From Eledone cirrhosa (lineage: Eukaryota): a stretch of DNA of 64,000 nucleotides. Below the pieces are notes generated by a model that had not been told where the DNA came from, searched no databases, and worked only from the letters and a program-made list of their open reading frames with translations. Shown here piece by piece: positions 6,526 to 59,262 of the stretch (its first letter is position 1; each line of letters begins with the position of its first letter). The DNA lies in contig OZ024745.1 of the NCBI GenBank assembly GCA_964016885.1, positions 127,162,001 to 127,226,000 of the forward strand, given 5' to 3'. The position numbers and the translations under genes were made by a program.

Positions 6526-6580
6526 ACTGCTACATATATTTCGGTGACAGCCATCTTTGGCTGTGACCTCTTCAGGCAGT
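6526..6580 (-). ncRNA. Type I hammerhead ribozyme motif, intact core
   Basis: Minus strand: ACTGC CTGAAGA GGTCACAGCC aaagat GGCTGTCACC GAAA TATATG TA GCAGT. 5-bp stem I, 10-bp stem II (one mismatch), minimal stem III, GUA site. Confidence 0.85.
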
Positions 6581-6659
6581 CCGAATTAGTGTGGTATAGA
6601 CAAGTACATATGTTGTTGAGGTGTATAATTTTGTCAATACTCTGATATGTCCAGTTACA

Positions 6660-7025
6660 TATAGTAATAATAATAAATTTGAAGACTAAAATCCAAAGAG
6701 GGCTCGATAAAAGCAGCGATTCTTTGCTTAAACTTTAATCTGTTATTTTAATAAATATATATATACATATATATATATATATATATATATATATATATAT
6801 ATATATATATATTTATTAAAATAATAGATTAAAGTTTAAGCAAAGAATCGCTGCTTTCACCCTTAACGGGATCTTCTTCAGAAGGGTGAAAGCAGCGATT
6901 CTTTGCTTAAACTTTAATCTGTTATTTTAATAAATATTTGCTCTACGGTTCTTATATATTTGATATATATTTTCCTTATCGAGCCCTCTTTGGATTTTAG
7001 TCTTCAATTTTATTATTATTACTAT
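6660..7025. mobile_element. (TA)n-anchored fold-back element, family D (other pieces at 8837-8856, 9478-9545, 40470-40560, 51572-51810)
   Basis: Nested inverted repeats of aataataataaatttgaagactaaaatcc... and gggtgaaagcagcgattctttgcttaaactttaatctg, abutting (TA)n; same sequence recurs at the listed sites. Confidence 0.7.
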
Positions 7026-7192
7026 ATATATATATATATATATATATCATCAAAGATTAATATGGTTCATTGATTACTCAATGAATATAGTTTTACAATA
7101 GATTAAAAGCACTCTACAAGAAAGTTTTCTGGAGTTATTAATATTATTCAAAATATTAATAAATGAAGACATTCACATAATCAAAATATATG

Positions 7193-7254
7193 TTTTATTA
7201 TATATATTTCGAAGGTACTGTGCTGTTTTTTCAGTACGTCCTCGTCAGATAAAA
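7193..7254 (-). ncRNA. Type I hammerhead motif (family B), left arm of palindrome
   Basis: Minus strand: TTTTAT CTGACGA GGACGTACTG..CAGTACCTTC GAAA TATATA TA ATAAAA. Confidence 0.8.
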
Positions 7255-7370
7255 ATACATGAATTGATGTATGACATACCTCAACGGTCTTGATGGTTCA
7301 ATTCCAGTATTGCCAATACTGGAATTGAACCATCAAGACAGTTGAGGTATGTCATACATCAATTCACGCA

Positions 7371-7431
7371 TTTTATCTGACGAGGACGTACTAAAAAACA
7401 GCACAGTACCTTCGAAATATATATAATAAAA
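7371..7431 (+). ncRNA. Type I hammerhead motif (family B), right arm of palindrome
   Basis: TTTTAT CTGACGA GGACGTACT..AGTACCTTC GAAA TATATA TA ATAAAA; stem I 6 bp, palindromic TATATA in stem III. Confidence 0.8.
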
Positions 7432-55560: not shown

Positions 55561-56697
55561 AACTGGTCCTCCCGTATTTTCTCTTACTGATCCTCCTATA
55601 TTTTATATTAACTGATCTTCCCGTATTTTCTCTTAGCTGATCCTCCCGTATTTTCTCTTAGCTGATCCTCCCGTATTTTCTCTTAGCTGATCCTCCTATA
55701 TTTTCTATTAACTGATCCTCCCGTATTTTATATTAACTGATCCTCTCATATTTTCTATTAACTGAACCCCCATATTTTCTATTAACTGATCCTCCTGTAT
55801 TTTCTCTTAGCTGATCCTCCTGTATTTTCTCTTAGCTGATCCTCCCATATTTTCTATTAACTGATCCTCCTATATTTTCTCTTAGCTGATCCTCCCGTAT
55901 TTTCTATTAGCTGATCCTCCCATATTTTCTATTAACTGATCCTCCCATATTTTCTCTTAGCTGATCCTCCCATATTTTCTATTAACTGATCCTCCCATAT
56001 TTTCTATTAACTGATCCTCCCATATTTTCTCTTAGCTGATCCTCCTGTATTTTCTATTAACTGATCCTCCCATATTTTCTATTAACTGATCCTCCCGTAT
56101 TTTCTCTTAGCTGATCCTCCTATATTTTCTATTAACTGATCCTCCCATATTTTCTATTAACTGATCCTCCCATATTTTCTATTAACTGATCCGCCCATAT
56201 TTTCTCTTAGCTGATCCTCCCATATTTTCTATTAACTGATCCTCCCATATTTTCTATTAACTGATCCTCCCATATTTTCTCTTAGCTGATCCTCCCATAT
56301 TTTCTATTAACTGATCCTCCCATATTTTCTATTAACTGATCCTCCCGTATTTTCTCTTAGCTGATCCTCTCATATTTTCTATTAACTGATCCTCCCATAT
56401 TTTCTATTAACTGATCCTCCTATATTTTCTATTAGCTGATCCTCCTATATTTTCTATTAACTGATCCTCCCATATTTTCTATTAACTGAGCCTCCTATAT
56501 TTTCTCTTAGCTGATCCTCCTGTATTTTCTCTTAGCTGATCCTCCTGTATTTTCTCTTAGCTGATCCTCCTGAATTTTCTCTTAGCTGATCCTCCTGTAT
56601 TTTCTCTTAGCTGATCCTCCTGTATTTTCTCTTAATTAATCCTCCTGTATTTTCTATTAGGTGATCCTCCAGAATTTTCTTTCAACTGATCCTCCTC
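55535..56697. repeat. 25-bp minisatellite, about 46 copies
   Basis: ctgatcctcccRtattttctMttaR. Confidence 0.95.
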
Positions 56698-58103
56698 ATT
56701 TTTTTATTTTTTTATTTTAAGGATGAACATTGAATAATGTAAAAATTGAAACGCTGTGTCTAGGCAAAAGGGCGAAATTGTCACAGCTCAATTATCCAAG
56801 ATCATCAGTACATACTTGATCAGGGCTGACCTGGGGCAAACTAACAACTAAGCCTACACATCTCTCTCTCTCTTTCTCTCTCTTTCTCTCTCTTTCTCTC
56901 TCTCTCTCTCTCTCTCTCTCTCTATCTCTATCTCTCTCTCTCTCTCTCTCTCTCTCATGGTATGTGAATGTGTGTAGAAAGTCACATAGACACCACTTAT
57001 ACATCACGTATACCTCACAAATACATTATACACGTGCGCGACGTCAAAGAGAATAAATTCGCGAAATTAAGCCAAGAAACAACAACAACCACAACAACAA
57101 CCACAACAACAACCACAACAACAACCACAACAACAACACCAATTACACACAGCAGCAAAAATCGTGTTTAGACACGTGTTTGTGTGAATCGGTGTTTCAT
57201 TGTATAACTATATGTTTGTGTGGTGGTTTTTTATGTGTATGGGCGTCTTTAAGCTACATATACATACATATATATACATACATATTCATACATATATACA
57301 TAGCTATACATACATATATATATATATACATATATATATATATATACATATATATATATACATTACATACATGCATATACACATTTATATACATACATAT
57401 ATATGCATATATACACATACATACATACATACATACATACATACATACATACATACATACATACATACATACATACATACATACATACATACATACATAC
57501 ATACATATGCTTGCATGTACGTGTGTGCGTGGGTGTATTTCAGTTGATATTTATATAATTCTATGCTGCATTCCTGAAGTTATTTTATTTCTGTTGACGC
57601 CTCCAGTAGCACTATAGCCGGAAAACAATTAGGAAACATTTTTTTCCGGTTTCATGGCTAAAATAGGCAACAGAAATTTGAATATATCTACAACATCTGC
57701 ATACAAATAACAGATTATTTATTATGTTGTTGAGTGAAAGGTCTAATTAATCTCTAAGGTATCACAGAAATAGTGAAGGTAAATATAAAAAGACGTTGAA
57801 ATTTAAATCCACATCTGGCAAACAGATAAAAAAAGGTTTCCCCAAGTAATACAAGAACACGAAAGTCGATATGGCTAATTTGAGATCTCAGCTTATCTTT
57901 TTTTTCATTTTTTTTCAATGCAAATGCAGTTGTCCGCCGGTATTCGCGGGGGCTACGTTCCTAGAGCTCCTAAAAAGAGTGAAAAACCGTGAATATTGGA
58001 CGTGGTCCGTAAAAATGCCTATAAACGTCAAAAATATAACGTTGAAACGGCCGGAACTCAGCCATCGGGGTCCTGACTCTTTTCCTATATATATATATAT
58101 ATA

Positions 58104-58410
58104 TAGTTGTCCCCCGATATTCGCGATGGTTACGTTCCTAGAGAACCCGCGACGTGGTCCATAAAAATCCCTATAAACGTCAAAAATATAACGTAAAATA
58201 TAGGCCGGCAAATACGGTAGATTGTTATTAATGATTTGGCGTTAAAAACCGTGAAAAAAACATATATTGCCACGAAAAAAGGCATTAAAAAATCGCGGAA
58301 GATATTTACGATTCCGCGAATATGCAGTGGTTTACACGAACAATTATTAGTTAGGGTCTAAGGAAAATTCCGCGAATAACCGGGACCGCGAATGCCGTGG
58401 GTACACTATA
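58104..58410. mobile_element. Tigger/pogo-like MITE about 305 bp (copies 41213-41710 with SINE inside, 45790-46345 with CRE inside, 57927-58042 truncated)
   Basis: TIRs (c)agttgtcccccgatattcgcg / cgcgaatgccgtgggtacact, TA flanks; copies align by eye. Confidence 0.8.
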
Positions 58411-58710
58411 ACATTTATCTTTTGTATTATATTGTGGTTTATCATCAACTATAGTAGTGTCATGTTATATCGACTTTCTTTTCTGAGTTATGTGTACTAT
58501 AATAATTGTTTCTACTTTTGGCACAAGGCCAGCAATTACCCCAGTGCATTACTGGTACTTTATTTTATCGACCCCGTAAGGATGAAAGGCAAAGTTAACC
58601 TCGGCAGGATTTGAACTCAGAACGTAAAGGACCATAACTCTATGCTGCAAAGCATGATCCCGTAAGGATGAAAGGCAAATCTAAGCTCGGATTGTTGCAG
58701 AAATATATTG

Positions 58711-58751
58711 TCAAAGCTCTTTCGTCACACATTCTGTGACCTCCTCAGTGA
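58711..58751 (-). ncRNA. Minimal hammerhead motif, intact core
   Basis: Minus strand: TCA CTGAGGA G GTCAC agaatgt GTGAC GAAA GAGC TT TGA. Confidence 0.75.
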
Positions 58752-59064
58752 ATTGGTTTTTATTTTGTGTCTCTCCTTTGTTCTGTCCTACGCCATCTTG
58801 TTTTTGTGTGTTGTATGTTGTGTGTTGACAACACACAGCACACAAAAACAAGATGGTGTGGGACAGAGCTATGACAATATATAAACAACCTTCCGGAAAT
58901 TTATAATAAATTGAAGTGAAACTAACAGGTGCGTGTGTTTTTATTGGCAGCATGACCCTCCCAAAGTATAACAATATCTTTTCAACACACGTTTTCAGAT
59001 AAGAAATCTCGCAAAACAAATTCAAAAACGAATTATATATATATATATATATATATATATATAT

Positions 59065-59262
59065 AACGAAGGAAGAGTGGTAAGGAACCAGATGGACCAT
59101 AATGCACCAGAGTACTCAATACTTAGGGTAGTAGAGTGGGTAATAGAAAAATGTTTGACCCCGACGGCAGAGCTCAAGCCGTTTCAACGGCTATTTCTGG
59201 ACCCAGTCCAGAAATAGCCGTCGAAACGGCTTGAGCTCTGCCGTCGGGGTTAAACATTTTCT
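59065..59262. mobile_element. Family C fold-back element (truncated copies 33960-34058, 50025-50115, 58043-58085)
   Basis: Same sequence as 17307, between two (TA)n tracts; hairpin centre cca at 59203-59205. Confidence 0.85.

Follow-up and report, generated by a model that had tools for sequence, protein, structure and literature searches.

Hammerhead-bearing elements at (TA)n in the Eledone cirrhosa genome as probable short 3'-end copies of Penelope-like elements

The short hammerhead-bearing elements that lie beside (TA)n runs in a 64-kb stretch of the Eledone cirrhosa genome (contig OZ024745.1; this whole stretch is called the window here, and positions are counted from its first letter) are probably short copies of the 3' ends, or pseudo-LTRs, of Penelope-like elements (PLEs) coding for reverse transcriptase (RT) and a GIY-YIG endonuclease (EN); they are likely to have been put into (TA)n by the PLEs' own protein, many of them from short transcripts begun inside the pseudo-LTR. 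Their sharply fixed start and end points are likely to be a record of how such elements copy themselves.

At all eight sites where an intact hammerhead core had been named, the CTGANGA and GAAA boxes are indeed present, as is a stem II of 3 bp or more (core starts, with strand: 6575-, 7248-, 7377+, 9726+, 21647+, 26807+, 36220+ and 58748-); a ninth core, at 6881-, is spurious, being produced by the junction of a family E fold-back. Against these eight, dinucleotide shuffles (200 for each of three block sizes) gave 0.4-0.5 cores with a maximum of 3-4. If a minimal type I hammerhead is taken to require the core boxes, stems I and II, a palindromic stem III and NUH (mean 0.2, maximum 2 in shuffles), the description holds for six of the eight, while the sites at 9722 and 36216 fail because their stem I is shorter than 3 bp. 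Two of the four cores said to differ by a single change are genuine, namely 53992 (family B; C3 changed) and 52075 (family G; G5 changed, the core being intact in other copies of the family), whereas at 51684 all of family E reads CAGAAGA and lacks both U16.1 and stem I, so that this is not a single change, and at 38903 (family F) CCGATGA is present but the GAAA box is absent. Stem I, which was left out of the search pattern, pairs in 16 of 28 clusters as compared with 2.0 in swapped controls, and all four Watson-Crick types occur at its first pair. No hammerhead family appears among the 150 listed of 240 Rfam matches, nor in the 29 rows obtained for 6480-7475, all of these being below gathering scores; matches on the stubs include microRNA-like ones. 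Small hammerhead variants in PLEs were reportedly described by Lunse et al. in 2017. The hammerheads here are predicted to need dimers or protein help in order to cleave, and they appear to be dispensable for the spreading of the elements, since families E, F and H have spread with degenerate cores or none.

The features of the window are as follows; arms are short- or long-ended according to which of two alternative 3' ends they carry, and a hot spot is a 5' end shared by many copies of a family.

6496..6656 (-): family C stub, 3' end of a Hydra-type PLE, complete minimal hammerhead (core start 6575)
6664..7022: fold-back of family E made up of a short-ended arm, 6877-6817 (-), and a long-ended one, 6881-7022 (+), with further pieces of the family at 6664-6758
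7051..7483: fold-back of family A (Hydra-type); both arms, the long-ended 7312-7051 (-) and the short-ended 7311-7479 (+), have their 5' ends at the hot spot of the family, and the hammerheads at 7248- and 7377+ are complete
9479..9549 (+): short-ended arm of family E, its 5' end at the hot spot; inverted remnant of 23 nt at 8835-8857
9664..9845 (+): family B stub, Neptune/Nematis-type, core 9726, stem I <3 bp
17308..17511: fold-back of family H, a 3' end of Hydra type that lacks a canonical hammerhead core; there is a second copy at 18134-18320
21611..21751 (+): relative of family A in which the hammerhead, at 21647, is complete
26690..26925 (+): stub of family B, its hammerhead at 26807 complete; 27060-27130 is an inverted 3' fragment
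28623..29341 (-): decayed PLE remnant, RT thumb to CxxxxCxxC linker (tblastn E 2e-9 and 7e-8), broken by a SINE-like repeat
36173..36337 (+): family B stub, core 36220, stem I <3 bp
38771..39072: fold-back of family F without a complete hammerhead; the short-ended arm, 38907-39072 (+), begins at the hot spot, and the tail arm is 38905-38771 (-)
40471..40563 (-): 3' fragment of family E, core region absent
51574..51808: fold-back of family E made up of a long-ended arm, 51735-51574 (-), and a short-ended one, 51753-51808 (+)
51913..52233: family G fold-back, Neptune/Nematis-type, short-ended arm 52038-52233 (+) from the hot spot, long-ended arm 52040-51913 (-), one change in the core at 52080
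53978..54051 (+): fragment of family B whose core, at 53996, has C3 changed
58690..59033: fold-back of family D (Neptune/Nematis-type); one arm, 58814-58700 (-), holds a complete hammerhead at 58748, and the other, 58886-59033 (+), is long-ended
59066..59262: fold-back of family H; its long-ended arm is 59204-59066 (-) and its short-ended arm is 59206-59260 (+)

The elements had been taken to be unrelated in sequence, but the 12 sites belong to seven families, with 7193, 7371 and 21641 all in family A and 9722, 26803, 36216 and 53992 all in family B; the eighth family, H, has no core, and in family E the hammerhead is degenerate throughout. The initial annotation saw in them non-autonomous derivatives of PLEs or retrozymes whose driver was unidentified. 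The link to PLEs is upheld, but non-autonomy and a missing driver are not supported: RT/GIY-YIG-coding PLEs of the same families are present in the genome, and every family is the 3' end of one of these, which identifies the driver. Longer genomic copies of all eight families reach EN, with RT or the RT thumb also upstream in every family other than F, for which only EN was found. The family B tail lies downstream of EN matches on the same strand in 22 of 30 cases, and also follows a 625-aa RT+EN frame whose relatives carry RVT_1, PF26215 and GIY-YIG. The corresponding linkage to EN is 20/30 for A, 4/30 for G, 1/10 (a single locus) for F, 4/6 extended loci for D, 2/3 extended loci for E and one locus for H, while family C has RT thumb and EN upstream at loci L152 and L153; these samples are the best 25-30 loci of each DNA search and so are biased toward the query. 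GIY-YIG frames near family C at L070, L085 (minus strand) and L088, and near family G at L282, belong to nested neighbouring elements and were not counted. Among the loci examined no family has an intact full-length ORF, all frames being broken or partial; the longest are the 625-aa frame, which has a deletion, and a Hydra-type 512+132-aa frame with one stop at locus L321, which is followed by a tail like that at 21611..21751. Pfam matched three of ten frames, weakly and below cut-off in each case. Within the window itself, the statement that no PLE RT or GIY-YIG ORF is visible needs qualifying in view of the decayed remnant at 28623-29341.

Judged by the motifs given by Craig et al. (2021; PMC8557442), families A, C, E, F and H are of Hydra type, the reference being their Hydra clade with Hydra-1_Obim of Octopus bimaculoides, and B, D and G are of Neptune/Nematis type, these two clades not being separated. 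Shared with the Hydra clade are a C-terminal GIY-YIG, a CxCX5C linker, the lack of CCHH and, close to the C-terminus, CxxC and CxH (seen in frames of A, C, E and H; for F only the C-terminal part of this set is visible), as well as insertion at (TA)n and a hammerhead near the 3' end, the CTGANGAT...TGAA variant included (Files S1/S2 of that paper). The N-terminal RWK and DKT motifs found no match in a scan of the partial frames, from which the region concerned may be missing. Unlike the published clade, there are here many families at very high copy number, 3' UTRs of 0.8-1.3 kb and tails of 75-160 nt rather than 30-40; moreover, although the hammerhead has been called universal in the Hydra clade (PMC8557442), a canonical one is present in the pseudo-LTRs of A and C but not in those of E, F and H. 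Families B, D and G, whose frames contain a CX2-5CxxC linker and CCHH, share the CX4CxxC linker and CCHH of the Neptune/Nematis PLEs of Cervera and De la Pena (2014; PMC4209133), together with hammerheads that have an extra base after the core, a short stem I and a palindromic stem III.

The proposed preference for (TA)n is well borne out, as (TA)4 follows 431 of 594 element 3' ends compared with 7.6% of random positions (3' ends at (TA)n by family: A 60/79, C 41/56, E 100/125, H 94/109). There are two alternative 3' ends, short (S) and long (L), which are 40-90 nt apart, or about 160 in family F. The inverted partners that had been remarked on are real, but an adjacent inverted copy is rare in family B, where there are no fold-backs among 81 arms (by a 120-nt rule). 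Where fold-backs do occur they comprise one L arm and one S arm in 119 of 122 typed cases, i.e. an inverted 5' copy with a tail at one end only; this near-strict rule spans six unrelated families, and holds in 56 of 57 fold-backs from sets that were met by chance or had a query holding neither end. Among non-TA flanks the L tail never continues into the element body, so that there is no support for its derivation from the 5' pseudo-LTR in a full-length RNA. The two arms of one 181-nt pair are 99% complementary.

At their other end, copies of several families begin at an initiator-like hot spot, the proportion of 5' ends within 8 nt of one site being 20/28 for A, 19/29 for G, 53/65 for H, 38/92 for E and 9/29 for C, while family D has no crisp hot spot; counted from the core, the hot spots stand at -68 in A, -42 in G, -7 in F and -3 in H. 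A TATA-like motif stands at -32 in long copies of three of six families (background 4.4%, P about 0.0015); families E and C have no TATA box. Across the family A hot spot the summed depth of a public run drops from about 95,000-120,000 to 4,000-5,000, a depth that is not a copy number and comes from one sample, possibly the assembly's own source. Taken with the TATA motif, the hot spots suggest that short pseudo-LTR transcripts were copied. It is rather unlikely, though worth weighing, that full-length PLE RNA was instead truncated at random with no short transcript involved, the hot spots then being RT stops or preferred joining at short near-palindromes. Heavy 5' truncation is a known trait of PLEs, as are inverted 5' copies (PMC8557442), near-palindromes do occur at several junctions, and for family B, where 5' ends range broadly from -274 to +62 (it was left out of one 5'-end histogram as a CA run swamped the counts), plain 5' truncation fits; however, the hot spots persist in copies joined directly to (TA)n, the motif at -32 recurs in three unrelated families, and structure upstream of the hot spots is weak (MFE -3 to -6 kcal/mol). 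Splicing at the hot spots was rejected as junction sequences share no common 5' exon.

Fixed 5' and 3' ends would also be expected if the elements were self-propagating and retrozyme-like, short units being transcribed, self-cleaved, circularised and re-inserted in trans by PLE protein, and this genome does hold a hammerhead array of 13 units of 311 nt that has an inverted head copy; vertebrate retrozymes, too, are derived from pseudo-LTRs (bioRxiv 10.64898/2026.07.22.740005). The TATA-less families E and C could carry internal promoters: that of D. virilis Penelope is internal and TATA-less (PMC2377424), so short copies of E and C might keep theirs. As an account of the window this is nevertheless improbable. 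Each copy in it is a monomer or part of an inverted pair and has sequence in common with coding copies, and head-to-tail repeats are absent, whereas such repeats and circular RNA define the non-LTR retrozymes (PMC7229834 and that preprint), which are otherwise similarly short, non-coding, pseudo-LTR-derived units with type I hammerheads. Head-to-tail repeats with a hammerhead per unit were met only in another family, at L396, L159 and L168, so the retrozyme idea is correct for the genome but not for the window sites. Furthermore, 5' ends lie upstream of the core, with no enrichment of starts at the hammerhead cleavage site, and E and H, among the most frequent families, have no working core. 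Nor is any lineage separate from the coding element apparent, since comparison of identities and column counts between short and long copies (A 43/22, G 52/9, C 23/14, E 40/22) gave no diagnostic columns in four of four families, in a small, query-biased sample. Least credible by far is the idea that the motifs arose by chance and that the fold-backs come from hairpin rearrangements of DNA at (TA)n, represent MITE-like elements or are artefacts of assembly; (TA)n is certainly abundant and palindromic, and the 99% complementary arm pair would suit such an origin, but arms end at two different family-specific points, and chance motifs are refuted by counts far above those in shuffles and by the pairing of stem I.

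If the elements are indeed 3'-end copies of PLEs, the endonuclease would cut (TA)n on both strands, and longer copies would have in their pseudo-LTR a TATA/initiator promoter giving rise to RNAs of 150-350 nt that span the hammerhead. One DNA end would then prime at S and the other at L, and the two cDNAs would be joined head to head, yielding a fold-back with TA at both outer ends; copies beginning at the start site, having no upstream TATA box, would be dead-end by-products. The nearest experimental parallel is Poseidon PAc of Anolis (Frangieh et al. 2024, PMC11167929), which in vitro cuts and extends both strands, as may be supposed for the families here, has similarly AT-rich targets and two RT start sites that define an optional tail, and does not need its hammerhead. 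In that system, however, no difference in RT start site was seen between the strands, so that strict S+L pairing, in which each end is used once in nearly every fold-back, is not predicted by that alone.

As to abundance, the figure of about one motif per 5 kb holds only if decayed sites are included, since the window's 64 kb has six motifs that are complete; evenly spaced genome stretches totalling 400 kb contain 32 complete motifs (1 per 12.5 kb), which by extrapolation gives roughly 2x10^5 intact motifs per genome and supports the view that they form a large genomic component. This estimate compares with 2,000-9,000 motifs in PMC4209133, and is above the published counts found for other animals, such as up to 120,000 for the axolotl (PMC7229834).

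The elements themselves are of a known kind. PLE hammerheads, (TA)n targeting and inverted copies have already been published, including for the octopus Hydra family, and single motifs 'probably related to truncated PLEs' and opposite-strand motif pairs 100-700 bp apart are on record (PMC4209133); we did not find a printed account of S+L pairing, of an initiator-like 5' pile-up with TATA or of a count near 2x10^5. The value of the present results is in figures relevant to how inverted copies and one-sided tails arise in PLEs: the S+L rule and 5' ends at likely start sites lead directly to predictions for the in vitro PLE system that already exists, and families spreading with dead hammerheads favour the view that the ribozyme is unneeded for insertion. 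In view of the microRNA-like Rfam matches, stubs may be misfiled as microRNA hairpins, or else as MITEs or SINEs. More tentatively, and with the odds somewhat against the whole of it, both cut strands may prime, each at one of two fixed RNA sites, with a TATA/initiator promoter in the pseudo-LTR supplying the short RNAs, so that some 2x10^5 hammerheads come to be scattered as promoterless fold-back stubs and an occasional unit gives rise to a retrozyme array; if this is true, the genome would document, in natural form, both how PLEs work and how retrozymes are born.

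Scanning the window (G000:C5:127162001-127226000, from an assembly of 3.0 Gb in 1796 contigs; GC 36.9%, microsatellites plentiful) for CTGANGA, a stem II and GAAA gave nine sites, as against 0.4-0.5 in shuffled sequence: the eight cores that the initial annotation had described as intact, all recovered, and one at 6881, which was ruled out as a genuine core, being an artefact of a fold-back junction. When stem I must reach 3 bp, stem III must be palindromic and NUH must be present, six of the eight are retained (shuffles: mean 0.2, maximum 2), those at 9722 and 36216 failing. 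The four supposed single-change cores divide equally, since 53992 and 52075 are damaged copies from families having intact cores, whereas the families of 51684 (E) and 38903 (F) have no complete motif. Nor are the 12 sites sequence-unrelated, as had been supposed; self-comparison places them in seven families, to which can be added an eighth, H, that has the same architecture but no core.

Family assignment of the named sites (self-comparison)
Family A: 7193, 7371, 21641
Family B: 9722, 26803, 36216, 53992
Families C, D, E, F, G: remaining named sites

A non-circular test of structure was made by gathering sites from all loci on core and stem II only (433 sites, giving 28 clusters with at least two copies; 30 singletons left out). 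Stem I pairs over 4 bp or more in 16 of the 28 clusters, as against 2.0 (maximum 7) with 3' strands swapped. At least 16 distinct, fully structured hammerhead clusters occur among loci L001-L355, often one nested in the (TA)n flank of another. E and H, with 12 and 7 arms respectively in 400 kb, are among the commonest families; in both (window 6881, 9479, 51735, 59204) the site where 5' ends pile up is only 3-5 nt ahead of a degenerate core, leaving no space for stem I. A further TA-flanked fold-back family, nested within an E fold-back at 8915-9303, has 181-nt arms (99%), a tail of about 35 nt on one arm and no hammerhead core.

Longer copies of families A-H continue into coding sequence of Penelope-like elements (PLEs), which bears out the proposed PLE connection, but not the description of these elements as non-autonomous and lacking a recognisable driver. 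A query with the B endonuclease gave 13,443 candidates, and in 22 of the best 30 loci (two of the 30 being from the query's own region) a same-strand B tail lies 340-1100 nt downstream; the A query gave 55,720, and 20 of its best 30 loci carry an A tail downstream, at a distance of about 1.2-1.3 kb. Family C is likewise linked, as are D in 4/6 extended loci, E in 2/3, G in 4/30, F in 1/10 and H at one locus. One B tail sits behind a 625-aa reverse transcriptase and endonuclease frame whose relatives carry RVT_1, PF26215 and GIY-YIG. No intact frame was seen for any family among the loci examined. Families A, C, E and H share a CxCX5C linker and absence of CCHH with Hydra PLEs, of which this is described as the defining trait (PMC8557442); B, D and G have CX4CxxC and CCHH. 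Short and long copies of A, G, C and E show zero diagnostic columns. At locus L029:1380-1395, a polypyrimidine-AG motif about 170 nt ahead of the family B core is possibly a retained intron end, as in Penelope. The window itself contains a decayed Neptune-type PLE RT-thumb remnant (28623-29341) with a SINE-like insertion inside it, near an inverted pair (27611-27736 and 28048-28163).

Other sequence in the window
3478-3624 and about 20 further places: SINE-like repeat, 150-190 nt, at least two subfamilies
12077-16301: tandem array, 48/144-nt units, 4.2 kb
22759-23178: tandem arrays, 24- and 75-nt units
23568-25065: tandem array, 45-nt units, 1.5 kb
30817-31248 (-), 46008-46382 (-): fragments presumably akin to C-terminal restriction-like endonucleases of non-LTR elements
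34838-35782 (+): presumed host exon, acidic low-complexity frame with short cysteine-rich start
61700-61830 (+): presumed host exon, scavenger-receptor-like stretch

Families A, C, D, E, G and H each have two 3' ends, short (S) and long (L), 40-90 nt apart, while B has one; (TA)4 follows 431 of 594 element 3' ends, as against 7.6% of random positions. Both ends could be typed in 122 of 148 fold-backs, giving 119 L+S, 2 L+L and 1 S+S, and query-unbiased sets gave L+S in 56 of 57 (18 more untyped). This near-strict pairing holds despite S and L ends being about equally frequent in most families. At the other end, 5' ends lie within 8 nt of one site in A (20/28), G (19/29), H (53/65), E (38/92) and C (9/29), every such hot spot falling on pyrimidine-A-N-T, which we take to be initiator-like; those of B behave as plain 5' truncation. 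Where one long copy per family was tested, a TATA-like motif was found at -32 in A, G and F and was absent in H, E and C, although H has one in 3/5 other contexts. Summed depth in a public run falls more than 20-fold across the A hot spot (one sample, weakly supportive).

The linkage, the 3' ends, the (TA)n target and the S+L pairing are matters of direct observation. To account for them, it may be that (TA)n is cut open on both its strands by the endonuclease, that synthesis from each DNA 3' end starts at one or other of two sites on the RNA, and that the resulting cDNAs are joined head to head. The proposal extends in vitro PLE work reported as showing both strands cut and extended, two start sites and a dispensable hammerhead, though the same work saw no difference between strands (PMC11167929). 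Short templates likely begin at a predicted promoter in the pseudo-LTR, in which case the TATA box would be missing from the copies made of them. Against this account stand E and C, without TATA, the Penelope promoter of D. virilis, described as TATA-less (PMC2377424), and the failure to find any 3' tail continuing into the element body.

Much of the background is already published. PMC4209133 describes PLE repeats that contain minimal hammerheads, solitary motifs left by truncated PLEs, and pairs of motifs on opposite strands; PMC8557442 covers inverted copies, tails at one end only, a bias towards (TA)n and a hammerhead-bearing Hydra family from octopus. Octopus repeat papers name Penelope-like elements (PMC13282606, PMC8967140); in a term search of the 2026 paper's available text (PMC13282606), none of the words hammerhead, Hydra and Neptune turned up. 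A literature search, made without most subscription papers and Repbase, found neither strict S+L pairing, start-site stubs nor hammerhead counts in cephalopods. Retrozymes are described as tandem (PMC7229834; bioRxiv 10.64898/2026.07.22.740005). A retrozyme-like array does occur elsewhere in this genome, at L396:430-4640 (G000:C3:280008001 onward), where 13 units of 311 nt, all containing a complete hammerhead, are repeated head to tail at 99.7% identity or more, with an inverted copy at the head of the array and (TA)n flanks; shorter arrays of its family are at L159 (about 4100-5100) and L168.

First-look candidates, which are not copy numbers, were A 1825, B 1360, C 1346, D 2338, E 366, F 3381, G 348 and H 1278. 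Forty 10-kb stretches evenly spaced over the genome contained 32 complete motifs, as against 1.15 in shuffles, and (TA)5 lay 30-330 nt downstream of 23 of these (background 22%). Extrapolation gives some 2.3x10^5 motifs genome-wide (bootstrap 1.1-3.7x10^5), one array having supplied 5/32 of the sample. The stubs are a real feature, further members of an already known sort of element, and the value of the finding rests on their testable end rules and very high motif density.
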